DNA from: an uncultured Candidatus Binatia bacterium
Lineage (GTDB): Bacteria > Desulfobacterota > Binatia > UBA9968 > JAJDTQ01
Length of the DNA stretch: 64,000 nt
Assembly (NCBI GenBank): GCA_965215605.1
Contig: OZ244070.1
Span: 2,912,001 to 2,976,000 of the forward strand
Reading direction: 5' to 3'
Shown here piece by piece: positions 1,705 through 15,058 of this stretch. The notes under the pieces are model-generated. The model saw nothing but the letters and a program-made list of their open reading frames with translations. It made no database searches and was not told the origin of the DNA. The translations under genes and the position numbers were made by a program. Position 1 is the stretch's first letter, and every line of letters starts with the position of its first letter.

Positions 1705-3070
1705 GTGCCTCGCTCCCGGCCCGCGCCAGCTCGTTCACGGTCTCCGCCAGCCGCCGGCACAACTCCGGCAGGTCGTCGCTCTCCACGCTGCAGAAGGCGA
1801 TACGGAGCCCGTTCATGGCATCGCTCTCGAACGGCACGGTTCCGATGCCGTGTTCGTCGAGCAGGCGGTCGGCGACGTCCGATGCCCGGAGCCCCGACTC
1901 CGGCCGCAGGTTCACGAAGCAGAAGAAGCCGCCCTGAAACGGATCCACGGTAACGAGATCGGTATCGATCCTGCCGAGCTCGTCCTTCAGGGTCTGGTAC
2001 CGCCCTTTCAGGAGCTCGAAGGCCCGGCGCCGTTCGATCATCAGCCGTTCCATCTGCGCCATGGTCTTGGTGGCCACGGCCTGGGTCACCGTCGAGTTGC
2101 TGGAGAAGAGGCCCCGGTTGATGCCGCTGAACTTGTTGTCGAGCTCGGACGCCACGGCTTCGGCGTCGTCCGGGGAGAGCCACTCGTCGGGACGGGCGAG
2201 CGTGATGGTGCCCGCCCGTGCGCCGTACCAGAGCAGCTCCTTGGTCACGCCGTCCAGCTTCACCGGCAGAAGGTTCGGCCGCGGCCGGCACCGGTAGAAC
2301 AGCGACGACTGCACGGCGGCGGGATCGTAGACGTAGCTCTCGTAGGCGTCGTCGAACATCACCACCAGGCGCTTGGCGGTCCCTTCCACGAGATGCTCCA
2401 ACGATGCCACCAGCCGCCGCCCGGCGGCGGCGGACGGACAGAAGCCGGTGGGGTTGTTGGGGAAGTTGAGCAGCACCGCCGCGTTGTCCTGCTCGGACCA
2501 AACCCGTTGGATAGCCGAGACGAGCCCCGCCACGTTCAGGTCGCCGTCGTCGAGCAGCGGGAAATCGGTGATCCGGAGGCCGAGGTTGGCCGCGAGCACG
2601 TGGTCGTAGTTCTCCCAACGCCGGTCGGCCGTGATGATGGGCCGGCCGGGATCCACGAACATCCGCGCCGCAATGCTGATGGCCGCGGTGATCCCTGGCG
2701 TGAGGAACGGCTGATGCAGTTGTCGTTCGAGCCGCTCGGCCTCATCCCCCGCCCGCGCCAGGATCCACTTCCGCCATGCCGAACGGAAAGCGGGAGTGCC
2801 CGTTTCCGGCGTGTACGGAAAGATCTCCTCGGTGTCCAGATCCGGAAAGAAAGAGTGCACCAGGGGCGCGCAGAGCGTGATCTCGCGCTCTCCGCCGTCG
2901 GGGTAGACCGTTTTCTCCGGCCCTCGGGCGGACCCGATGGTGGCATTGATCCGGGCCTTGGCCTTGGCCTTGCGGGTCCAGTGCAGGATGCCCTGAGGGT
3001 TGTAGATCGTCTTTCCGAACGCGGAGAAGAACTCCAGGGCTCCGGTCCGGGACAGCGCGGGAAAATCCAT
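1691..3070 (-). CDS. PLP-dependent aminotransferase class I/II
   Basis: INATIG, NFPNNPTG, DDAY, KLDGVTK and GLRIAF motifs. Confidence 0.88.
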   Translation of the reverse strand: MDFPALSRTGALEFFSAFGKTIYNPQGILHWTRKAKAKARINATIGSARGPEKTVYPDGGEREITLCAPLVHSFFPDLDTEEIFPYTPETGTPAFRSAWRKWILARAGDEAERLERQLHQPFLTPGITAAISIAARMFVDPGRPIITADRRWENYDHVLAANLGLRITDFPLLDDGDLNVAGLVSAIQRVWSEQDNAAVLLNFPNNPTGFCPSAAAGRRLVASLEHLVEGTAKRLVVMFDDAYESYVYDPAAVQSSLFYRCRPRPNLLPVKLDGVTKELLWYGARAGTITLARPDEWLSPDDAEAVASELDNKFSGINRGLFSSNSTVTQAVATKTMAQMERLMIERRRAFELLKGRYQTLKDELGRIDTDLVTVDPFQGGFFCFVNLRPESGLRASDVADRLLDEHGIGTVPFESDAMNGLRIAFCSVESDDLPELCRRLAETVNELARAGSEARGQA

Positions 3071-3136
3071 CGGTTGCCTCGATTCTCAACAGCGCGGGAA
3101 AGACGCCGGGCCATCTCGCGTTGCCGTGTGACGCGG

Positions 3137-3940
3137 TTAGGCGAAGGCCCGGTCCAGGCGGGCCATGTCTTCAGCGGACAGACGCCAATCGGACGCGCCG
3201 CAGTTCTCGGCGGTCCGGGAGACGCTGTCGGACTTCGGGATGGCGATGACGTTGTCGTGGGAGATGCACCAGTTCAGCGCCACCTCGGCGGCTGTTTTCC
3301 GGGTCTGTCCGGCGATCTCCTGGAGCGCCTTCGTGCCCCGCGACGAGAACAGGCCGCCGCCGGTCACCAGCTTGCCGCTGTCCAGCGGCGTGTAGGCGAT
3401 GATGGTGACCGCGTTTGCCTGGCAGTAGGGGAGCAGGGTCCGCTCGATCTCGCGCCGCCGTAGGTTGTACAGCACCTGATTCGACACGATGGGGTGGTGG
3501 TCCAGGGCGGCCTGGGCTTCCGCCATCTCCTTGGTGGAGAAGTTGCTCACGCCGATGTAGCGGACCCGGCCCGAATCCACCAGGGTTTCCATGGCCCGCA
3601 TGGTTTCCTGGATGGGAGTGCTGGGGCTCGGCCAGTGAACCTGGTAGAGGTCGATGGTGTCCACATCCAGCCGCCGAAGGCTGGCGTCCGCGGCCCGGAG
3701 CACCTGGTCGTATCCCAGATGGTCGCCGGATACCTTGCTGGCGATGAACACCCGCTCGCGCATGCCCCGCACCGCTTCCCCCACCACGTCCTCGGTCCGG
3801 TACATCTCGGCCGTGTCGATGAGGTTGGCGCCCAATCCGATGCCGTGCCGGAGGGGCTCGACTCCGCCCCGGTACTGCCAGACTCCCAAGCCGATCTCGG
3901 GGACCTGGACGTCCGTGCCACCGAGTTGTTTCGTCTTCAT
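3137..3940 (-). CDS. Aldo/keto reductase
   Basis: IDTAEMY, IDLYQVHWP, IGVSNF and IPKS motifs. Confidence 0.93.
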   Translation of the reverse strand: MKTKQLGGTDVQVPEIGLGVWQYRGGVEPLRHGIGLGANLIDTAEMYRTEDVVGEAVRGMRERVFIASKVSGDHLGYDQVLRAADASLRRLDVDTIDLYQVHWPSPSTPIQETMRAMETLVDSGRVRYIGVSNFSTKEMAEAQAALDHHPIVSNQVLYNLRRREIERTLLPYCQANAVTIIAYTPLDSGKLVTGGGLFSSRGTKALQEIAGQTRKTAAEVALNWCISHDNVIAIPKSDSVSRTAENCGASDWRLSAEDMARLDRAFA

Positions 3941-4054
3941 GAGGTGCCCGTCATGGAGTCCCGGAGGAATCGGTGTATTGGGTGGAACGGTACGCGTCGA
4001 TGCTGCACGGGAGGCGACGGACAGGTCGCGGAAGGGTGAGTGCGGGACCGGCCA

Positions 4055-4357
4055 CTAGGCGTTGGTGGTGGCGCTGTCGCCGGACGATGACTTCTCGGAG
4101 GTCTTGCTCTCCTTGGACTTGCCGGTGTCGGAGGTCTCCTTGCCTTCGTTGCCTTCTTTCTTGTCTCCGTTGGAACCCTTTCCCCGTCCGTAGTCGGTGA
4201 TGTACCAACCGGTGCCCTTGAGTTGGAAGGACGTGCTGGAGATGAGCTTCTGCACCTTGGCCCGGCAGGCCGGACACTTCTCCAGCGGATCCTCCGTGAT
4301 CCTCTGGGTCACCTCGAACACGCCGCATTTCGAACAGTTGTACTCGTAGATGGGCAT
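4055..4357 (-). CDS. FmdB-family zinc-ribbon protein
   Basis: [12 protein letters not shown]...CPAC...[13 protein letters not shown], with a low-complexity S/K/E tail; start reassigned to ATG 4357. Confidence 0.88.
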
Positions 4358-4547
4358 ACGCTGGCCTCGCGCGGATAGGGGTGGGTTATCGGAAACATAA
4401 ACACTGCCCGGCCCGTTGTCAAACACGGTTGCCGGGGGCGGATGCAGCCGCCAGGCCGTGTCCGGGGCCGGCTTGACCTTCGACCGGGCGCGGGCTTATG
4501 TTACGAGCCATCTCTCAGCCCGACCGACGCCAGACAAGGAGGAAGGA

Positions 4548-5717
4548 ATGGACTTCGAGCTTCCCGAAGAGATCAAGATCATCAAGAAGACCATGCGCGA
4601 TTTCGTGGAGCGGGAGCTGATCCCGCTGGAGCGGGAGTTTCGCCCGGAGGGCGAGGAGATGCCCGAGGAGCTCTACAAGCCGCTCCAGGAAAAGGCCCGG
4701 GCCCTGGGTTTCTGGATGCTGGACGTGCCCGAGGAGTACGGCGGCGCCGGGCTCGACCTGCTGACGCGCTGCGTGATCCAGGAGGAAGTGTCCCGGACCA
4801 TCTCCATCCCCTTCCGCAACAATCCGATCTTCGGCCCGGAGGCGCGCGGCATCCTGTTCGAGCTCAACGACGAGCAGAAGGAGCGCTACCTCTACCCGGT
4901 GCTCCGGGGCGAGAAGACCGCCTGCTTCGCCCAGACCGAGCCCGACGCCGGCGGCGACCCTGCGGGCATGAAGACCCGGGCGGTGCTGGACGGCGACCAT
5001 TGGGTGTTGAACGGCACCAAGCGGTTCATCAGCAACGCGGGCTTCTCCGACTTCGCCCAAGTCATGGCGGTGACCGACCCGGAGAAACGCGCCCGGGGCG
5101 GCATCTCCACCTTTCTCGTGGACATGGATACCCCCGGCGTCACCATCGAGCGGCGCTGGCCCACGATGATGGGCGACGCCCCGTTCCAGATTCTCTTCGA
5201 GAACGCCCGGATACCGGCGTCCAACCTCGTGGGCGAGGCGGGGCAGGGCTTCCGGCTGGCCCAGGGCTGGCTCCAGGAGGGGCGCGTCAAGGGCCACGGC
5301 GCCCGCTGCATCGGCATCGCCGAGCGCGCCCTGGACATGATGATGGACTACTGCCAGATCCGCACCACCTTCGGCCAGCCGCTGTCGGAACGGCAGGCGG
5401 TCCAGTTCATGGTCGCCGACTCGGTCATGGAACTGCACATGGCCCGCAACCTGGTCTACGAATGCGCCTGGCGCCACGACCGCGGTGAGGACGTCCGCAA
5501 CCTGGCCTACATGGTCAAGTGTACGTGCACGGAGATGGCCAGCCGGGTGGTGGACCGCTCCATCCAGGTCCACGGCGGCATCGGCCTCACCAAGGAACTG
5601 CCGCTGGAGTGGTGGTACCGCCAGTTGCGCAGCATCCGCATCACCGAAGGCGCCACCGAGGTGTTGCGCTGGCGCATGGCCCAGAACCTGCTGCGCGCCC
5701 GCGCCAAGGGCCAATGA
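4548..5717 (+). CDS. Acyl-CoA dehydrogenase
   Basis: MDFELPEE start after GGAGG; FAQTEPDAGGD, NGTKRFIS, QVHGGIG and ITEGATE motifs. Confidence 0.93.
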   Translation: MDFELPEEIKIIKKTMRDFVERELIPLEREFRPEGEEMPEELYKPLQEKARALGFWMLDVPEEYGGAGLDLLTRCVIQEEVSRTISIPFRNNPIFGPEARGILFELNDEQKERYLYPVLRGEKTACFAQTEPDAGGDPAGMKTRAVLDGDHWVLNGTKRFISNAGFSDFAQVMAVTDPEKRARGGISTFLVDMDTPGVTIERRWPTMMGDAPFQILFENARIPASNLVGEAGQGFRLAQGWLQEGRVKGHGARCIGIAERALDMMMDYCQIRTTFGQPLSERQAVQFMVADSVMELHMARNLVYECAWRHDRGEDVRNLAYMVKCTCTEMASRVVDRSIQVHGGIGLTKELPLEWWYRQLRSIRITEGATEVLRWRMAQNLLRARAKGQ

Positions 5718-6910: not shown

Positions 6911-8124
6911 TGCCCAGTCCCAACAGGATACTCGAAGGCGTCCGGATCATCGCGTTCACCACCGGATACGCCGGACCCTATGCCGGCCGGCTGCTGGCCC
7001 AGTACGGCGCCGAGGTCATCAAGGTGGAGTCGTACCCCGGCGGCCTCGACACCTTCCGGCACTACGGCGCGGCGGGCGACATCAACGCCGCGCCGCGCTT
7101 CATCGAGTGCAACCTGGCCATCCGCTCCATGACCGTCAACATCAAGCACGACGACGGAAAGCGGATCATCAAGGAGCTGGCGGCCAAGTCCAACGCGGTG
7201 CTGGTGAACTTCCGGCCCCAGGTGCTGGGCCGGCTCGGGCTCGGCGACGACGAACTCAGGAAGGTCAACCCATCCATCATCATCCTCAAGCTGCCGGGCC
7301 TCGGCGAGACCGGACCCAAGAACTGGTACGGCACCTGGGGGTTCAATCTCAATTCCTTCAGCGGCATGACCTACCTGTGGAACCATCCCGGACAGGACCG
7401 TCCCATCGGCAGCCAGGGCGTCTATCCCGACCATCTCGGCTTCATCTCCGCGCCCACCATCATGATGGCCGCGCTGCTTCGCCAGAAGCTCACCGGCAAG
7501 GGCTGCTCCATCGACGTGTCCCAGGGCGAGGTGACCGCCTATACCCTGGGCGCCAGCTACCTGGAGTCCAGCATCAACGGCGTCGATGCCGAGCCCCAGG
7601 GCAACCGGAGCCTCACCGCCGCCCCGCACGGCTGCTACCGTTGTGAGGGTGACGAGCGCTGGTGCGTGGTGTCGGTCAACAGCGACGACGAGTGGCGGCG
7701 GCTGTGCGGCGTCATGGGCAACGAGGCGCTGGCCGGCGACAGCCGCTTCGCCACCTGCGTCGAGCGGCGCCGCCATGGCGACGAGTTGGACGCCATCATG
7801 TCCGACTGGCTCGCCGCCCAGACCGTCGAGGACGTCGCCCACCGCCTGCAAGCCGCCGGGGTCCCGGCCGGAGTGGTGCAGAACGGCACCGACCTCTGCA
7901 ACGACCCCCAGCTCCGCCACCGGGACTACTTCCAGAAATACGACGACTCCCCCATCGGCCCCTTCGAGCTGCCCCGGGGCGGGATCATCTTCAAGGACCA
8001 GCCGGAGGAAGAAATCCCGCTCACCCCGAACCTCGGCGAGCACACTGAGCAGGTCATGCGGGATGTGCTCGGCTACGACGAAGCCGCCATCGGCAAGTGG
8101 AAGGAGGAGGGGGTGCTGGTGTAG
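6910..8124 (+). CDS. Class III CoA-transferase, catalytic-Asp subunit
   Basis: GAEVIKVES, NFRP, YPDH (Asp), APHGCYRC and PNLGEH motifs; TGATG coupling. Confidence 0.9.
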   Translation: MPSPNRILEGVRIIAFTTGYAGPYAGRLLAQYGAEVIKVESYPGGLDTFRHYGAAGDINAAPRFIECNLAIRSMTVNIKHDDGKRIIKELAAKSNAVLVNFRPQVLGRLGLGDDELRKVNPSIIILKLPGLGETGPKNWYGTWGFNLNSFSGMTYLWNHPGQDRPIGSQGVYPDHLGFISAPTIMMAALLRQKLTGKGCSIDVSQGEVTAYTLGASYLESSINGVDAEPQGNRSLTAAPHGCYRCEGDERWCVVSVNSDDEWRRLCGVMGNEALAGDSRFATCVERRRHGDELDAIMSDWLAAQTVEDVAHRLQAAGVPAGVVQNGTDLCNDPQLRHRDYFQKYDDSPIGPFELPRGGIIFKDQPEEEIPLTPNLGEHTEQVMRDVLGYDEAAIGKWKEEGVLV

Positions 8125-8202
8125 GTTTCGGCCGGCGCCATGGCCAAGCATTGACAGCGCTTGGGGCGTCTCCGGTGCGAGAGTCAACAACGATGCCCGA
8201 AC

Positions 8203-8289
8203 CCGTCATTCCGGCCAAAGCCGACACCCAGGGGGGAGGGGGGGAGACCGCAGCCCCCCTCTGGATTCCGGCTTTGGCCGGAATGACGG
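8203..8289. repeat. REP-like palindromic element with 21-bp perfect inverted arms
   Basis: CCGTCATTCCGGCCAAAGCCG (8203-8223) is the reverse complement of 8269-8289; lies between convergent genes. Confidence 0.85.
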
Positions 8290-8305
8290 TCGCGGGACTA
8301 TCGCG

Positions 8306-9541
8306 TCAATCCAGCTTTCGCGGTGAATCAGACAGTTCTTTCAAGTCCTGCTGCCAAGCGGAACTCTTACGCACGGCGTACCGGATGACGGGCAGGCTGC
8401 ACTTCAAGGCGATCATCAGGAAAACGATTGGGAACAGGATGTTCTTGATGATGATCGCAATCGAGAGTTCGACCATGCTCGTCACCATACCACTCGACTT
8501 GTCGACGATTGCCGTCACTTGGGAGTAGCCAATCTTGCTGGCGGCAGACAACTTCTCCCACAACGAATCACAGGTCTTGCCAGCCATACGTCTGTCGATA
8601 CATTGAAGATCGTTGTTGCGGCGATTAAGCTGCCTCTCGATGTTTTTGATGGCACGGCCGACTCCCTCCCGCCTTTCCATCGCGCGCGAGAGCTCTTCTC
8701 CGTGAGGGATACCGCCAAACACTTCGGGTATTCGGCCGCGCCAACCCTTCTCTTCATCGAGTTTCCGGATTTTATTGTCCATGCGCTGTGCCTCCTGCCG
8801 GCGCGATGCCAACCCGGTCTTCAGGGCGTCCAACGTCGCCAACGTCTCTTCCCTCCGAGTCAACAGATCCTGATCGCCTACGATCGGCAAACTCGGGTCT
8901 GCTCCGACATCAGCGCTCAAGGCTGACAAGCGGCCCTGGTGTTCCTGGATCGTTGTTCCGAGGAACATCTCAGCCGCCAGAACGCTGACGACGACGAACA
9001 CCGGGACGATAAAGCGAATGATGGCGCCGACGACGAAAATTCGGATGAGCAGGCCGCGACAGCAGGCCAAGCCCATCTCGGGAACCTGCAACCCGACAAG
9101 AACCAGAGCTCGACCCGGTACCCATGCCGAAGCGAGCAACACCGCGAACGTCGCTACACCGATGCAGAAGAAACTCCACTGAAAAACCGCCGTTGAAGTC
9201 ACTTCAAGTACCAAACGCTGGAGCAACAGCGAACCAATGGCCCAGACCATCATGGACGAGAGCCTTTCCACCGCATCGTTGAGCGGGTCGAGCAGTTCGC
9301 CAAACTGTACGGATGCTATGCCTATCGAGCCTTGGAAACTCTGTGCCATGGAAATGCCTGCATTGATGGTCCTGGACAACGCATAAATAACGGTGGATTC
9401 GGTTGTGGTTGCGTCAAGTTGATCGGCGGCGAAGCGATCCAATGCGCCGTGAAGGGAAAGCACCGCAAGGACGAGAAGGAAGGCGGCAAGCATCGCGTCT
9501 GCGGACGAGGTGAACTTCCAGTGCTGCCTGCTGTTGCTCAT
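8306..9541 (-). CDS. Hypothetical multi-pass membrane protein with a long coiled-coil insert
   Basis: Several hydrophobic helices, GELLDPLNDAVERLS segment and a heptad-rich region; AGGAGG upstream of ATG 9541; lower GC. Confidence 0.7.
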   Translation of the reverse strand: MSNSRQHWKFTSSADAMLAAFLLVLAVLSLHGALDRFAADQLDATTTESTVIYALSRTINAGISMAQSFQGSIGIASVQFGELLDPLNDAVERLSSMMVWAIGSLLLQRLVLEVTSTAVFQWSFFCIGVATFAVLLASAWVPGRALVLVGLQVPEMGLACCRGLLIRIFVVGAIIRFIVPVFVVVSVLAAEMFLGTTIQEHQGRLSALSADVGADPSLPIVGDQDLLTRREETLATLDALKTGLASRRQEAQRMDNKIRKLDEEKGWRGRIPEVFGGIPHGEELSRAMERREGVGRAIKNIERQLNRRNNDLQCIDRRMAGKTCDSLWEKLSAASKIGYSQVTAIVDKSSGMVTSMVELSIAIIIKNILFPIVFLMIALKCSLPVIRYAVRKSSAWQQDLKELSDSPRKLD

Positions 9542-9739
9542 TCGACTACCGAGACCTCCTTTCAGCCTTGAGAATGGCATCGTGGACCGGTAAGTCCCAA
9601 TCATCAAGTGAAGGAAGAAGAACAAGGTGGCCCTGCCGGTCGTTGGCGGGATGGCCGTACACGCGGAGGGATTGACTTGTTCCTGGACAAATTGCGAAGA
9701 TCCAGTGCTGCCACTGTCCAGACTCTTCGCAACCATGCG

Positions 9740-10498
9740 TCACCGGGCGCGTGCTACGAAGAACGCGTAGCCGTAGTAGTCTGAATACGCCTTCCAGATA
9801 TCGATCTCGCGCTGAGTTTGATCGGCCAACACCCGCGCCTCGGGATGCGTGCGGTGACGTGCCCGGAACGCCGTCACGTTCCGTTGGAGTGGACGGTAGT
9901 AGTCGTCCCACCACGCGGACCGCGGCAGCATGAAGTGTCCCACCGTATCGTAACCGCACGCGCCGATGGCGGTCAGGAGCGCCGCCCTGTCGCGGATAGC
10001 CGGGTATTCCTGGTTCCAGAACGAGACGCATTCCTCCGGCGGGCCGGGGTTCGTCCAGCAGACCTCGGAAAAGACCGCATGCCCGCCGTGCACGAGGAGG
10101 CGGCGCCAGTCACGCAAAGCGGCCTCGACACCCGCGATGTAGATGGCGCCCTCGCACCAGATCAGGTCGAACGAGGCGTCCGGGAAATCGAGATGGTGCA
10201 TGTCTGCGACGTGCGCCTGCAAGCGGTCGGAGAGGTTGAGGCGGTGCGCCTCATCATTCAGGACGTCGACGAACGGCGGATGGTTGTCGATGGCGACAAT
10301 GTGCACCGAAGAGTTCCGTGCCAGTACCCGCGTCTGCAATCCGGTGCCGCAGCCCACGTCGAGAATGCGGGTTCCGGGTCCAACATCCGGAACGAGGGAG
10401 AGGGCCCGGAGCGTGCTGGCGGCATCGCCGGGTCCCTGGCGCGGCAGCCCGCTAAAGAGCTCGAAGAACAAGGCGGCGGTGGTCGTGTCTTCCGGCAT
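9740..10498 (-). CDS. Class I SAM-dependent methyltransferase
   Basis: LPRQGPG, ILDVGCGTG and FDLIWCEGAIY motifs. Confidence 0.9.
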   Translation of the reverse strand: MPEDTTTAALFFELFSGLPRQGPGDAASTLRALSLVPDVGPGTRILDVGCGTGLQTRVLARNSSVHIVAIDNHPPFVDVLNDEAHRLNLSDRLQAHVADMHHLDFPDASFDLIWCEGAIYIAGVEAALRDWRRLLVHGGHAVFSEVCWTNPGPPEECVSFWNQEYPAIRDRAALLTAIGACGYDTVGHFMLPRSAWWDDYYRPLQRNVTAFRARHRTHPEARVLADQTQREIDIWKAYSDYYGYAFFVARAR

Positions 10499-10575: not shown

Positions 10576-11646
10576 ATGGCGCTGTTCCTCACCAACGAGG
10601 AAGTGGAGCGGCTCGTCACCGTCGAGGACGCCATCGAGGTGCTGGAGCCCACCTTCGCCGATCTTGGCGCCGGCCGGCTGTCGAGCCGTCCGCGCACGCT
10701 CAACTATACCGGCCTCGGTGACGGGGAGTTCTATCTCTACTCCTGCATGGATGCCTCGGTGCCGCGCTACGGCGTGCACCTGATACGGATGACCTCGGAA
10801 CATCTGTCACGCAAGGTGGTAAAGGGTTTTCCCCGACGTTACCAGATTCCCAACCCCGCGGGCAAGTTCTCCGGCCTGATCATCATGTTCAGCATCGAGG
10901 ACCACGCGCCGCTGGCGATGTTTCAGGACGCGGTGCTCAACCGTACCATGATCGGCGCCACCAGCGGCATTGCCGCCAAGTATCTCAGCCGGGCCGACAG
11001 CGAGGTGATGGCGTTGCTGGGCGCCGGATGGCTGGCGCCGACCCAGGTGATCGGCCATTGCGCGGTCCGGCCGATCCGCGAGATCCGGGTCTACGGCCCG
11101 ACGGAGGAGCACAAGCTCGGCCTGTGCGAGGCCATGGAAGGACGCGTCTCCGCCAAACTGATGCCGGTGGCCAGCACGGAGGAGGCGGTAGAGGGCGCCG
11201 ACATCATCGCCTGCGCCACCAACTCCTACGAGCCGGTGTTCGACGGCGCCATGCTGAAACCCGGCCACTACGTCGGCTCGCTCCAGGTCGGAGAACTCGA
11301 CGAACTCACCCACGAGACCGCCGATACCATCACCGCCCGCGCCCGAGAGCCGGCCACCATCTGGCACATGAAGACCGGCGAGACACCCGCCGATCAGCTC
11401 TGGCTGGAGCGCTGGAAGCCCCACTGGAACGACAAGCTCAAGTTCCTGGGCGAGATCGTCGAGGGCCTCGACCAGGGCCGTACGCGCGACGACGACATCA
11501 CGCTATTCGGCGGCGTCGGCACCGGCCCCTCCAGCGGGCTGGGGCTGCAATACATTCCCGCCTGGGTCGCCTATCGGCGCGCACGCGAACAGGGCATCGG
11601 CTTCGAAATCCCCGATGAGTTGTTCCTCCAGGACGTCCATCCATAG
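10576..11646 (+). CDS. Ornithine cyclodeaminase/mu-crystallin family protein
   Basis: GATSGIAAKYL, LLGAGWLA, ADIIACATNS and GRTRDDDITLF motifs. Confidence 0.85.
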   Translation: MALFLTNEEVERLVTVEDAIEVLEPTFADLGAGRLSSRPRTLNYTGLGDGEFYLYSCMDASVPRYGVHLIRMTSEHLSRKVVKGFPRRYQIPNPAGKFSGLIIMFSIEDHAPLAMFQDAVLNRTMIGATSGIAAKYLSRADSEVMALLGAGWLAPTQVIGHCAVRPIREIRVYGPTEEHKLGLCEAMEGRVSAKLMPVASTEEAVEGADIIACATNSYEPVFDGAMLKPGHYVGSLQVGELDELTHETADTITARAREPATIWHMKTGETPADQLWLERWKPHWNDKLKFLGEIVEGLDQGRTRDDDITLFGGVGTGPSSGLGLQYIPAWVAYRRAREQGIGFEIPDELFLQDVHP

Positions 11647-11648
11647 GA

Positions 11649-11700
11649 ACCCTGACTTGGAACTATAGCCATTATCCCGAGAACGTCCGACATCTACCAT
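11649..11700 (-). pseudogene. N-terminal stub of a MazF/PemK-type toxin
   Basis: Immediately after the MazE-like tail; encodes (Y/I)VPSQG, resembling the MazF YVPxxGD start, then runs into the convergent gene. Confidence 0.45.
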
Positions 11701-12227
11701 TCTTCCTTGCCGACCGGTGGTCCCCAGTCGAGTTCATCCGCCGTGTACTCCTTCGGCACTTCGGACACCAATGCCTTCAGGTCATGCCTCGTCCGCCTTC
11801 TTGATACGGGTGGGGAAGACGCGAGTGCAAATTCGGCAAGCTTAGCAAGCAGCGTTGACGATGGGTGTGCGCTATTGTATTGGCCCTTCTTCAGCCACGA
11901 CTCGGTCGTCAGCCAGGAGGTTGTCCTCCCTACGACTTCGACGAGTTCATCGTGTGGTATCAAGTACCAAGTTCCGCTGACCGGAAAAGCCATGTGCACC
12001 GCCTTTCCCTGGTACTTCTTGGCGATGGTCAGGCGAGCCTTCAACTGCACTTTGAGGGTTTGCTCACCATCCTTGTGGTAGGCCAGGAAGTCGGCACCCT
12101 GCCAGTCGTCGTGGAGCTTGATGCAGTTGAAACCGTAGTCCGCCAGTAGACCCGCGACTTTCTGAAAATTGTAGATCTCCTTCTGTTTCGCACTGAGGTT
12201 CTGATAGGTGACTCGCTTGAGCTTCAT
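11694..12227 (-). CDS. PD-(D/E)xK-like hypothetical protein with a MazE-like C-terminal tail
   Basis: GADFLA...LKVQLK (D...QxK) core; C-terminus RHDLKALVSEVP...ELDWGPPVGKEEW resembles the E. coli MazE end (IDWGEPKDKEVW). Confidence 0.7.
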   Translation of the reverse strand: MKLKRVTYQNLSAKQKEIYNFQKVAGLLADYGFNCIKLHDDWQGADFLAYHKDGEQTLKVQLKARLTIAKKYQGKAVHMAFPVSGTWYLIPHDELVEVVGRTTSWLTTESWLKKGQYNSAHPSSTLLAKLAEFALASSPPVSRRRTRHDLKALVSEVPKEYTADELDWGPPVGKEEW

Positions 12228-12272
12228 CGTCGTGTTTCTCCTGCCTAATTGATGTTGATTTCAGCTCGCGCT

Positions 12273-13499
12273 TTACCGTTGCGACCACAGCGCCGAAATA
12301 GGCGCCGCGAACAGGCGCTCGCCGAACGGCACGACGTGTTCGTGGTCGTGGAGCACCAGTCCCAGAACGAAGCGGTCGCCGCAGGCTTCCGACAGGCGGC
12401 GAAGGCCCGCGAAGTCTCGTGAGGTCACTGTGGCGGAAGCCTTGACCTCGATTCCGACCACTCGCCCGCGCCGGTCCTCGATGACGATATCGACCTCTTT
12501 CCGCTCCTTGTCGCGGAAATGGGAGAACTCATAGCGTTCTTCAGACCAACTGGCCAGTTTCAGTAGCTCGGCGAGAACGAAAGTTTCGAGGACTGGTCCG
12601 AACAGCCTCTTGTTTTCCCTCACGCGTTTGGGGGTGATGTCTCTCAGGGCGGCGAGCAAGCCTGCATCGAGGAAGTGCAGCTTGGGTGTTTTGGTGAGCC
12701 GCTTGAGCACATTGCTGAACCAGGGTTGAAGGGTGTGCAGGAGGAACAGGCTCTCGAAGACGCCGGTGTATCTCCGCGTGGTGGGGTGGTTCATGCCCAG
12801 CGGCGCGCCGAAACCGGAATAGTTGACGAGTTGTCCGGAGTGTTCGGCGAGGACCCGCAAGAGCCTGGGCATCAGCGGTATCTTCTCGAACTGGGCGGTG
12901 TCGCGGATGTCCCGTTGAACGATGGCCTCGATGTAGTCGAGGTACCAGTCCTGTCGAGTGTTCCACCGCGAGCGGGTCAGAGCTTCCGGATAACCGCCGG
13001 CCAGAACCCTTTCGATCAAGTCGGCTCCGACCACGATGTCGCCGAGATTCGGCACTTGGCCTTCGAAGGCTGCGTCGAGGAAGGCGGATGGTCTCCCTTT
13101 CAACTCCGCCTGGGCCAGAGGCAGGAGGCGCACGACCTTCATCCGACCGGCAAGCGAATCGGCCACCCGGGGCACCGTCATGAGATTCGCGGAGCCGGTG
13201 AGCAAGAAACGTCCGGGTCTCGGGTCGGCATCTACAGCCGTCTTGATGGCAAGTAACAGATCGGGCGCGCGCTGAATCTCGTCGATCACCGCCCGGTCGA
13301 GGCCCCGTATGAAACCCACCGGGTCCGCTAGGGCCGCATCCAGCGTGGTCTGGTCGTCAAGGTTCAGAAACGGGATTTCTCGGCTCGCAATCTGCCTTGC
13401 GAGCGTCGTCTTTCCCGACTGCCGGGGTCCGGATACGAGCACCACCCTCGTATGGGTCAGCGCGTCATGGATACGGTCTTCGATGAAGCGCGAATACAT
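12273..13499 (-). CDS. AAA_14 ATPase with wHTH and DUF4143 (C-terminal PD-(D/E)xK-like) domains
   Basis: GPRQSGKTT, IDEIQR, LTGS, SLAGR, GGYP, KLHFLDAGL and EVDIVIE...IEVK motifs. Confidence 0.92.
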   Translation of the reverse strand: MYSRFIEDRIHDALTHTRVVLVSGPRQSGKTTLARQIASREIPFLNLDDQTTLDAALADPVGFIRGLDRAVIDEIQRAPDLLLAIKTAVDADPRPGRFLLTGSANLMTVPRVADSLAGRMKVVRLLPLAQAELKGRPSAFLDAAFEGQVPNLGDIVVGADLIERVLAGGYPEALTRSRWNTRQDWYLDYIEAIVQRDIRDTAQFEKIPLMPRLLRVLAEHSGQLVNYSGFGAPLGMNHPTTRRYTGVFESLFLLHTLQPWFSNVLKRLTKTPKLHFLDAGLLAALRDITPKRVRENKRLFGPVLETFVLAELLKLASWSEERYEFSHFRDKERKEVDIVIEDRRGRVVGIEVKASATVTSRDFAGLRRLSEACGDRFVLGLVLHDHEHVVPFGERLFAAPISALWSQR

Positions 13500-13529
13500 A
13501 ACCACATCTCTTCAAGTAGTTGACGTGTA

Positions 13530-13559
13530 AGGATATGTATCCGACCAATTGAAAGTCAA
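13530..13559 (-). promoter_or_regulatory. Putative sigma70 promoter of the AAA_14 gene, overlapped by a repeat unit
   Basis: Minus strand TTGACT-N18-TATCCT. Confidence 0.5.
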
Positions 13560-13622
13560 GGTCCGACCAATTGAAAGTTGGAGAGCGACCAATTGAAGGT
13601 GAAGCACTGACCGATTGAAGGC
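13543..13622. repeat. Four direct repeats with exact 22-bp period (iteron-like)
   Basis: GACC(A/G)ATTGAA(A/G)G starts at 13543, 13565, 13587 and 13609; variable linkers of about 8 nt. Confidence 0.9.
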
Positions 13623-13654
13623 CTGTGCAGGAAGGCAGGCTTGGGATCCCGCCT

Positions 13655-15058
13655 CTACTCGCTGACGACGCACGCCTTCAGCCCTTCCCGCGAGCCCCGG
13701 TCCCATTCCTCTTCGTAGTTGGGCCAGTCGTTCAGGAAGAGCATGTCGTCGTAGGTGGCGTGGCCGGAGCCCCAGCGGCGCTCGGGGTGCACGGAGTCGT
13801 GGTGGGGGAAGGGGAGGCGGTATTTCTTCCAGCTCTCGTAGTAGCGGCGCATGATCTGGATGTAGAACTCCAGGGGGATGGCGGGTTGCTCGTGCTGGGA
13901 GACGAGGTCGGAGCCGGGTTCCCGGCGCCACTGGTTGAAGCGCGGGAAGATGCCGTGGCGCATCATGAAGTCTACGCCGTCGCCGGTGGACCTGACCGCG
14001 TCCGGGATGTTGTCGAAGCCGTAAGGCCGGGCCAGCTCCACGCCGCAGACGAAGTTGGGCCGGGCGTTGCCCTCGCCCAGGACCTCCACCGACTCGATCA
14101 TCCACTTGACCCAGTTGTCCCAGCCGATGCGGCGGTTCTTGCCCGGGTTGATCCACTCGAACAGCCGCTTGTCCCAGACCTCCATGTTGGCGTGGTGGCA
14201 GTCGACGCCCTCGGCGCGGTAGCGCTTCATGGTCTCCTTGTCCTTGGCGTTGGTCTGGATGTTGACGTAGCGGCGGTGGCCGCCCCACTTGAGGGCCGAG
14301 GCGTATTCCAGGTAGAAGTCGTCCTCCGACTTGCGGTGGAGGGTCTTCAGGATGGTGCCGCCGGAGATCAGGAAGTCGATGGGCGGAGCGTAGCCCACTT
14401 CGTCGATGGCGTCCTGCTCAATGGAGCGGGCGACCTCGGCCACGTAGGACACGGGCTTCACCGGCGTATTGAAGGTGAAGTCCCGGGACTCCTTCATCTG
14501 GCGCACGTTGACGTTGATGTCGCAGAAGCGGCACTCCTCGTCCGGCCCCCAGTACTGGCAGTTGCGGAACACCGTGGCGAAATAGCCGAAGGCGATGATC
14601 TCGTGGTACTTGGTGCCGTCCTCGAAGGACCGCGTGTAGTACTTGAGCGGCTTGGGGAAGCTCACGTCACAGAGTTCACGCCCGTCCAGCAACAGCCGCA
14701 CCTCCCCGTCGATCACGTCGATCACATAGGGCGAATCGGGGTTCAGGGTGGTCTGGACGATGACGGGCCGCAGGCCCAGGTGGCCGCCGCGGATGGCGAA
14801 CCACTCGGGCGTCCTGCGGTGTTCCTTCCGCTTCATGTCTTTCATGGACATCAGGTCGTAGGAGAACAGCCGGTAGGACTTGACCAGGGCGTCGGAGGCC
14901 AGCTCCAGGGCGGCGTCCGTGAACCAGTGGCCCACCCGCAGGAGATCCATCTTGAGGATGACTTCGCGGGGCATGTCCTCGTAGTTGCGCAGGTGCCACT
15001 CGAGGTATTCCGTCTCGCTCGACGAGGTGACGCTGTCCAGTTCGGCCGTGGTGGTCAT
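13655..15058 (-). CDS. Radical SAM protein with a non-canonical CX8CX2C motif
   Basis: CQYWGPDEECRFC, ISGG, NMEVWD...INPGK and NFVCG motifs. Confidence 0.8.
   Translation of the reverse strand: MTTTAELDSVTSSSETEYLEWHLRNYEDMPREVILKMDLLRVGHWFTDAALELASDALVKSYRLFSYDLMSMKDMKRKEHRRTPEWFAIRGGHLGLRPVIVQTTLNPDSPYVIDVIDGEVRLLLDGRELCDVSFPKPLKYYTRSFEDGTKYHEIIAFGYFATVFRNCQYWGPDEECRFCDINVNVRQMKESRDFTFNTPVKPVSYVAEVARSIEQDAIDEVGYAPPIDFLISGGTILKTLHRKSEDDFYLEYASALKWGGHRRYVNIQTNAKDKETMKRYRAEGVDCHHANMEVWDKRLFEWINPGKNRRIGWDNWVKWMIESVEVLGEGNARPNFVCGVELARPYGFDNIPDAVRSTGDGVDFMMRHGIFPRFNQWRREPGSDLVSQHEQPAIPLEFYIQIMRRYYESWKKYRLPFPHHDSVHPERRWGSGHATYDDMLFLNDWPNYEEEWDRGSREGLKACVVSE

Follow-up and report, generated by a model that had tools for sequence, protein, structure and literature searches.

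The question raised by this locus is what a short, strictly periodic repeat array is doing over the promoter of a gene whose product is predicted to be both an ATPase and a nuclease. The window, by which is meant the whole 64,000-nucleotide (64-kb) stretch analysed here, comes from an uncultured Candidatus Binatia bacterium (contig OZ244070.1), and the gene encodes a 408-residue protein with AAA_14 and DUF4143 domains (12273..13499, minus strand; Pfam) that PADLOC assigns to its family PDC-S01. In the 150-nt gap between this gene and the stop of a radical-SAM gene (13655-15058) there are four direct repeats on the minus strand at an exact 22-bp spacing, and arrays of this kind were found upstream of most of the homologs surveyed. 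The sequence of the repeat varies together with the predicted DNA-recognition helix of the adjoining protein, and the hexamers of a putative promoter are in phase with the array. Taken together, these features suggest that the array is an operator which is read by the product of the gene downstream of it.

The array in the window spans 13542..13620. Its unit of 22 bp carries a 13-nt core (YTTCAATYGGTCR), the copies reading (C/T)TTCAAT(C/T)GGTC, and the cores occupy 13608-13620, 13586-13598, 13564-13576 and 13542-13554, so that on the minus strand they start at 13620, 13598, 13576 and 13554. The initial annotation had reported four copies at exactly this spacing, and both the core starts and Tandem Repeats Finder (13541-13619, period 22, 3.6 copies, 73% matches, score 74) agree with it; another repeat search returned three overlapping 34-nt copies spaced by 22 and 22. 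Three of the cores are TTCAATTGGTC and the distal one is TTCAATCGGTC. The sequence TTCAATTGGTC is matched without mismatch at 13543-13553, 13565-13575 and 13587-13597 and with one mismatch at 13609-13619. There are eight matches in the 64 kb, against 7.77 expected by chance, the remaining four being scattered and having two mismatches, and all copies with no or one mismatch fall inside the array. In a phased-chain scan of the whole window the array was the only chain of four, and the two GC-rich chains of three found elsewhere resemble noise. No inverted or second array was found in the window, and the repeats are direct and 22 bp apart, without an AT-rich gap. A scan of 11500-14200 against Rfam at E <= 1 gave zero matches, and folding of 13497-13625 (minus) as RNA gave a z of -0.10, without a structure signal. 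Some finer points of the initial annotation were less durable. The CAATTG palindrome that it noted is present in three copies, but is not kept in relatives, which have CAATCG, CAATCA or CAAATG instead; the decay of conservation away from the gene is weak, the TCGG of the distal copy being the clade consensus; and the lower-GC island in which it placed the genes is indeed lower in GC, but the dip is only modest (0.58-0.61 compared with 0.64-0.69).

A survey of related loci, the check that the initial annotation had proposed, established that phased repeats lie upstream of many AAA_14-DUF4143 genes. A profile made from 21 homologs identified 576 related stretches, with one genome per species, and the best 80 were kept. 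These 80 loci encode proteins of 40-71% identity and come from the Alpha-, Beta-, Gamma- and Deltaproteobacteria, Acidobacteriota, Planctomycetota, Bacteroidota, Chloroflexota and others. In most of them phased repeats could already be seen on inspection of the 160 nt preceding the gene. When chains were sought of 14-mers identical at 9 or more of 14 positions and spaced by 21-24, three or more phased units were present directly upstream of the gene in 65 of the 80 loci. The same test was positive in 3 of 63 stretches lying 700 nt further upstream, 1 of 80 stretches within the gene and 0 of 80 shuffles (65/80 compared with 4/223 for the pooled controls; Fisher p 3e-46). Autocorrelation was calculated over 78 upstream regions, two of the 80 loci having too little upstream DNA, and its mean was 0.382 at a lag of 22 and 0.347 at a lag of 23, whereas the other lags and two control sets gave approximately 0.25; the best lag was 22, 23 or 44-46 in 65 of the 78. 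Nor is the motif scattered at unrelated genes. Copies of the consensus of each locus numbered 197 within 230 nt upstream of the gene, compared with 45 in 462 kb of flanking sequence (25 same-strand and 20 opposite-strand matches). The array thus occurs once, on the 5' side of the gene, and always faces the same way. In 65 loci no inverted array was found within about 4 kb. Arrays in the homologs have 3-9 units. A homolog from Bryobacterales has a 467-bp array of about 20 units that ends about 90 nt before the gene (L053:3436-3902), and which is built from a 69-bp (3 x 23) super-unit repeated 6.8 times at 98% identity.

Analysis of the protein proved informative as to what might read such an array. 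Its start was taken as the ATG at 13499, while the list of open reading frames (ORFs) has a GTG at 13505; homologs are mostly of 406 residues with the N-terminus MY(P/S)RF. AAA_14 (E 3.6e-25, 88.9 bits, cut-off 27) and DUF4143 (E 1e-44, 152.6 bits, cut-off 28.1) are the only Pfam families above cut-off, and the PADLOC model for PDC-S01, PDLC04790, matches at E 1.8e-174, with residues 3-409 aligned to 11-420 of the 422 profile positions. An AlphaFold2 model made with 76 sequences is confident (pLDDT 93.8) and consists of an AAA+ core, a helical lid, a winged helix and a C-terminal domain of alpha-beta-beta-beta-alpha-beta topology. The AAA+ core (residues 1-175; 12975..13499) contains the Walker A motif G24-T32 (GPRQSGKTT) and Walker B D73-E74. 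The predicted winged helix-turn-helix (wHTH; residues 204-280; 12660..12890) has helices at 207-219, 227-234 and 238-250 and wing strands at 254-257 and 273-276, the last helix being the predicted recognition helix (12750..12788). The segment that the initial annotation had described as HTH-like corresponds to helix 2, the turn and helix 3 of this domain. It had also proposed an AAA_14 domain and a C-terminal D...ExK nuclease-like motif, and both are borne out, the latter within a PD-(D/E)xK nuclease domain (residues 297-405; 12285..12611) with E305, D337 and E351-x-K353. Across the 76 sequences G24, K30, T32, D73, E74, E305, D337, E351 and K353 show either no variation or conservation of 90% or more. 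Because the Walker motifs and these nuclease residues are conserved, both enzymatic centres look active.

The order of an AAA+ core and then a winged helix is shared by the model with Orc1/Cdc6 bound to origin DNA and with STAND proteins, MalT among them. The best whole-chain Foldseek matches were the archaeal ATPases PABY2304 and SSO1545 (PDB 2qen and 2fna; TM 0.43-0.51), followed by origin-bound Orc1/Cdc6, by STAND proteins (Apaf-1, CED-4, plant NLRs and MalT) and by clamp-loader subunits. A match to nSTAND3 (20.2 bits) lies under its Pfam cut-off of 27.2, and the Pfam scan of the protein at E <= 0.1 gave no Cdc6 or ORC family. A search of PDB sequences with the family profile found no solved structure of the family, its matches being to P-loop proteins only (RecA and a designed P-loop protein). 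The model has no sensor domain within the 408 residues. A prediction of a homodimer, with two copies and ATP, scored 0.00 and counts neither way.

Comparison of motif and protein between loci brings array and winged helix together. Both the motif and its period, which is 22 or 23 bp, vary in classes that follow the protein tree. In the clade of the window, where the recognition helix reads NHxTTxKY, the core is TTTCAATYGGTCG with a period of 22, and the same period accompanies SHKTGQRY (core CTTCCAATTAGCGG), D(S/G/A)KTAxxY (ATTCCGWAATTTACG) and DGKTVDRW (ATTCCGGATYGGACG); a period of 23 is found with SRPTIRDY (CTTTCAWTYRGCCG) and (R/H)RETVE (CAATTGGACG). In five clades (8, 10, 6, 16 and 10 loci) the information content of the cores is 1-2 bits per position and that of the spacers approximately 0-0.3 bits; TTGAC occurs in only one spacer per array and the spacers are otherwise unconserved. 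After removal of 5 truncated, frameshifted or mis-started loci from the 80, a protein tree requires 6 changes of period, compared with 12-21 in 300 shuffles of the labels. Six clades are told apart best by the alignment columns of residues 242, 241, 238 and 239, and a stricter filter keeps 237, 239 and 241. Residues 237-242 form the first turn of the predicted recognition helix, and they differ between clades along with the DNA motif. The wHTH contains 14 of the top 40 clade-discriminating columns where 7.6 would be expected (p 0.009). Two paralogs in one metagenome-assembled genome (L034 and L064) have different motifs, and within clades no simple residue-to-base code was found by eye. The covariation of repeat and helix for which the initial annotation had suggested a test is thus seen, as concordance among kin. 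The concordance, and the finding that no other gene is conserved at these loci, make the gene's own winged helix the most economical candidate for the binder. One locus, L059, has tandem full-length paralogs (2106-3380 and 3980-5227), each with its own 3-unit 23-bp array (..CAATTGGACG).

The position of the array relative to the promoter suggests what binding would achieve. The sole sigma-70-like site in 11500-14000 is TTGACT-18-TATCCT (13559..13530). Its -35-like hexamer, TTGACT (13554..13559, minus), ends on the first base of the proximal core, and the proximal core (13542-13554) fills the 18-nt spacer before the -10-like TATCCT (13530..13535, minus), just as the initial annotation had read it. 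Among 47 loci with an alignable core a promoter-like site, defined by a score of 8 of 12 or better, was found in 31. The -35 in 17 of these 31 starts at -5/-6 from a core, as it does in the window, and in 7 others, all from 23-bp clades, it starts at the first base of the core (0/+1); from 1 to 4 units lie at or after the -35. The 23-bp clades use TTGCAA or TTTCAA as the -35 hexamer and a TACAAT variant of the last core as the -10. In three loci of a 23-bp clade (L035, L040 and L079) the last repeat is a TACAAT or TATAAT variant that ends 6-8 nt before the ATG, and this proximity to the start codon suggests that their mRNAs may be leaderless, with the -10 box forming part of the operator.

We therefore consider it probable, although by no means certain, that the PDC-S01-family protein binds its own phased array and represses its own promoter; self-binding taken alone is held with greater confidence than this mechanism as a whole. 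The array would be the operator of the gene downstream, and the AAA+/winged-helix/PD-(D/E)xK product of that gene its ligand, with one protomer occupying each 13-15-bp core by means of its winged helix. With direct-repeat cores recurring every two helical turns (22 bp in the window, 23 bp in other clades), protomers would be aligned head-to-tail on one face of the DNA and could bind cooperatively, perhaps in a manner dependent on nucleotide, with the upstream units supplying the cooperativity. Since the last units incorporate the -35 and -10 hexamers, an occupied array would be expected to block RNA polymerase, and a potentially toxic nuclease would thereby stay at a low, self-limited level. 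We read the array as an operator for autorepression because protein bound at the cores, in the spacer and across the hexamers, would leave the polymerase no access. Release from the array may then be linked to the biological role of the protein, which is presumed to be defence. The initial annotation had proposed that the ATPase recognises its own array, for autoregulation, loading, self-marking in defence or mobility of the cassette. The arrays of the homologs, their confinement upstream of the gene and the tracking of motif by clade and helix all favour recognition, with binding itself an inference from them. Of the four purposes autoregulation fits best, since the promoter hexamers sit in the array and in phase with it, and mobility is not upheld.

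Several observations weigh against this interpretation. The three-unit threshold was not reached in 15 of the 80 loci, some of which have 2-3 weaker units by eye (a seven-member clade with AAWTCNNCCA-like units, for example), and a few of the chains that were counted look spurious, such as that of the GC-rich L065. A promoter-like site scoring 8 of 12 or better was absent from 16 of the 47 loci. The repeat period is moreover the same as the start-to-start distance of -35 and -10 hexamers (22-23 bp), and a consensus scan would for this reason favour in-phase hexamers in any such array. There are only about 6-7 motif classes and thus few independent events, and because kin share clade labels the tree and column tests measure concordance rather than independent co-evolution. 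The two adjacent paralogs of L059 have similar motifs. In one subfamily (27-30% identity) a palindrome takes the place of the array. Finally, the winged helix of STAND proteins often serves for intramolecular packing and not for DNA binding.

An alternative use of the same contacts is that the array is mainly a platform for assembly or parking, where a head-to-tail oligomer, nucleated as those of DnaA or Orc1 are on their boxes, would be the nuclease at rest or in its sensing state, with control of transcription as a by-product. The evidence for self-binding serves this alternative equally, and the fold resembles those of Orc1/Cdc6 and STAND proteins. Arrays of 3-9 units, and of about 20 in the Bryobacterales homolog, reach well upstream of the promoter and beyond what simple occlusion would need, and a Thermus member of the family was induced 6.6-fold when a plasmid was present, according to PMC4406477. 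However, the last units always overlap the promoter or start region, which a pure platform would not need, and oligomerisation is an assumption of this alternative. We regard it as possible but unlikely. A more elaborate reading, which we offer as a speculation and think rather doubtful, is that PDC-S01 proteins might be sequence-programmed AAA+ nucleases that form head-to-tail polymers on phased sites. The array would in that case act as a dosage sensor and a parking site marked as 'self' where the nuclease is kept inactive, and foreign DNA, or a nucleotide state changed by phage, could release or re-template the filament and lead to cleavage.

It is also conceivable that the repeats are not bound by this protein at all, but act as promoter or UP-like elements, or are recognised by a host factor, such as a sigma factor or nucleoid protein, whose sites chance to recur before genes of this family. 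The agreement of the 22-23-bp period with -35/-10 spacing would be accounted for in this way, and so would the resemblance of cores in the 23-bp clades to promoter hexamers (TTTCAA or TTGCAA as -35 and TACAAT as -10). Yet the motif differs among clades within the same bacterial classes and tracks the recognition helix of the gene, and a host factor would not diversify with this one gene across phyla. Furthermore, TTGAC is found in a single spacer per array while the other spacers are unconserved, and the motif does not occur elsewhere in the 64 kb. Sites for a host factor appear improbable.

Phased direct repeats of 22 bp are typical of iterons and of some transposon ends, and the array could in principle be an origin of the plasmid-iteron type or the end of a mobile element with sites for a Tn7-type transposase. 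Besides the repeats themselves, the slightly lower GC of the stretch and the variable contexts of the homologs, which are sometimes beside recombinases or a tRNA, are in keeping with such an origin. Against it, there is one array, always 5' and in one orientation, and the 20 opposite-strand matches in 462 kb are at the level of noise; the window has no notable flanking direct or inverted repeats and its flanks are metabolic; and there is no Rep or transposase among the conserved neighbours of the 80 loci. We consider this explanation very improbable. A chance or slippage repeat without function, for which only the small size (79 bp) could be argued, can be dismissed on the exact phasing, the presence of arrays in homologs of 40-71% identity in many phyla and the combination of conserved cores with free spacers.

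Specific forms of mobility were considered for the window and rejected. Boundaries of a transposon or cassette were not supported, there being no meaningful flanking repeats in 11300-14000 and no second array. The 22-bp direct repeats of an iteron replicon are present, but there is no Rep family and the flanks are metabolic; and a Tn7-like transposon end with multiple sites is not compatible with the lack of an inverted second array and of a conserved neighbour. These same two absences leave the mobility of a cassette, as the initial annotation imagined it, unsupported. With no neighbour gene conserved across the 80 loci, the AAA_14-DUF4143 gene is a single-gene unit. The largest cluster of flanking ORFs was present in 6 of the 80 loci, and its members are copies or fragments of the same ATPase. 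No paralog of the gene was found within the window.

More distant homologs help to define how general the array is. Homologs were found by tblastn in 417 plasmid records, and the 12 full-length matches of lowest identity were examined from a spread list of 40 plasmid homologs. Five of the 12 have three or more units at exactly 23 bp, and they include members from Chlorobiota and Actinomycetota (Pseudosulfitobacter, 38% identity; Asticcacaulis, 34.5%; Prosthecochloris, 28.5%; Actinomyces, 27%; Collinsella, 26%). The array is therefore an old and wide trait in the family. In four others a palindrome with arms of 16-21 nt abuts the start codon (L084:348-392, L085:363-399, L087:369-413 and L091:364-400), and a fifth has a weaker one, so that a second, palindromic architecture is apparently present in a distant branch. 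The alphaproteobacterial members with this architecture (L085, L087 and L091; about 388 residues) share the arms CCTTGCA...TGCAAGG, and the Moraxella member (L084; about 420 residues) has different arms; a recombinase or integrase gene lies directly upstream in three of these four loci. No clear array was seen at the Thermus pTT27 locus (L082) or the Arcobacter locus (L090). The latter, on a plasmid of Arcobacter cloacae, is a 22%-identical member annotated between cas3 and cas4 of a CRISPR-Cas operon (L090:289-1548). Arrays are visible by eye in two cultured carriers at 44-62% identity, namely Marinobacter nauticus VT8 (pMAQU02), with 4 units at 22 bp, and an Agrobacterium pAt plasmid. Homologs occurred in 8 of 50,697 phage records, all of them unannotated and from human faecal samples.

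The initial annotation called the locus a candidate undescribed system. This is only partly the case, as the protein belongs to a family already known as the defence candidate PDC-S01 (AAA_14 + DUF4143, COG1373; PDLC04790), while the phased array upstream of it does appear to be undescribed; no account of an upstream repeat array in this family was found in the open-access literature searched, where the 'direct repeats' of the MANTIS preprint have a different meaning. PMC3424549 places DUF4143/COG1373 among the PD-(D/E)XK families and gives it no known function. According to PMC12988326, PDC-S01 joins an ATPase to a PD-(D/E)XK domain and ranks fourth in abundance among defence (candidate) systems, with about 29,500 copies counted in bacteria and 10,000 in archaea. 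Its validation is given as pending (PMC12988326, PMC13356809), and it is among 145 untested candidates in a preprint (10.1101/2024.01.29.577857). The passages on PDC-S01 in PMC12988326 mention no cis element, DNA ligand or mode of regulation, and the phased array is an addition to that account.

The arrangement resembles those of several well-known systems without being the same as any of them. The archaeal ATPases PABY2304 and SSO1545, for which we know of no function, share 14-15% identity with the window protein, are about 350 residues long and lack the PD-(D/E)xK domain. DnaA, an AAA+ protein, contacts DNA through a helix-turn-helix; it oligomerises on arrayed asymmetric sites and shuts off its own promoter. 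It is like the window protein in having a site array at the promoter of its own gene, but has neither winged helix nor nuclease domain; its HTH is in domain IV, its 9-mer boxes have no strict 22-bp phasing and its main role is at the origin. Orc1/Cdc6 proteins (PDB 2qby, 2v1u and 1w5t) also have an AAA+ core followed by a C-terminal winged helix, and Foldseek gave a probability of 1.0 over 379-401 columns, but the whole-chain TM is only 0.25-0.31 and they have no nuclease. The Orc1/Cdc6 gene adjoins its own repeated binding sites, the ORBs, which are inverted around an unwinding element, whereas the repeats of the window are direct and overlap the promoter. Iterons are phased direct repeats of about 22 bp that are read by the winged helices of Rep proteins (RepA, pi and TrfA) and autoregulate the adjacent gene. 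Rep proteins, however, are without AAA+ or nuclease domains, and the window has no Pfam match to Rep and no replicon context. MalT (PDB 8bob) was a fold match at rank 18, the match to nSTAND3 being sub-threshold, and it is driven by nucleotide to oligomerise onto asymmetric direct-repeat arrays in promoters; it differs in being an activator with a LuxR-type HTH and a sensor domain, none of which the window protein has, and in lacking a nuclease.

Other genes in the window were also considered. The gene downstream, P0002 (177 residues; 11694..12227, minus), was described by the initial annotation as a second nuclease-fold gene. Its modelled fold is indeed of the PD-(D/E)xK type, resembling Hjc and I-Ssp6803I (pLDDT 81; Foldseek E 4e-4; TMt approximately 0.5), but the idea of a two-gene system does not hold, since no homolog of it was found in the 80 loci (best E 0.024). 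It was accordingly rejected as a functional partner, being a neighbour in this genome only. P0002 has no family match in Pfam, NCBIfam or PADLOC, and it belongs to a large unnamed family with 1537 matches and invariant E17, D46 and Q61-x-K63, in which forms of about 300 residues hold the domain twice. The gene upstream of the array (13655-15058, minus) matches the NCBIfam family 'variant_rSAM' (E 1.7e-47) and no Pfam family at E <= 0.001, and it is followed by genes of amidohydrolase, ChsH2-type OB-fold and thiolase-like types. A second stretch of lower GC (0.57-0.59) is present at 8000-10000 and includes, at 8306-9736 (minus), an ORF of 476 residues with no Pfam or NCBIfam family that adjoins a class I methyltransferase. 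At one of the homologous loci a tRNA-Leu(CAA) gene ends about 65 nt before the start of the homolog (L023:3832-3918), and this could be a hot spot for integration.

The array provides a predicted natural DNA ligand for a family that has been without a known ligand, trigger or mechanism. It also predicts the register of binding, with one protomer to every 22-23 bp, and points to candidate specificity residues at 237-242, and with these DUF4143 becomes a directly testable protein-DNA system and a very common candidate anti-phage gene gains its first experimental handle. The logic of an AAA+/winged-helix protein acting on phased direct repeats at its own promoter is of a known regulatory kind, and here it suggests how a toxic nuclease might be kept in check. 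The rigid periods of 22 and 23 bp may further be a rare natural read-out of the pitch at which a protein assembles on DNA. Were the account of polymers and parking sites to be true, lineage-specific specificity for 13-15 bp would be encoded at the start of the recognition helix, and the pairs of motif and helix would record the evolution of that specificity in a way comparable to restriction enzymes.

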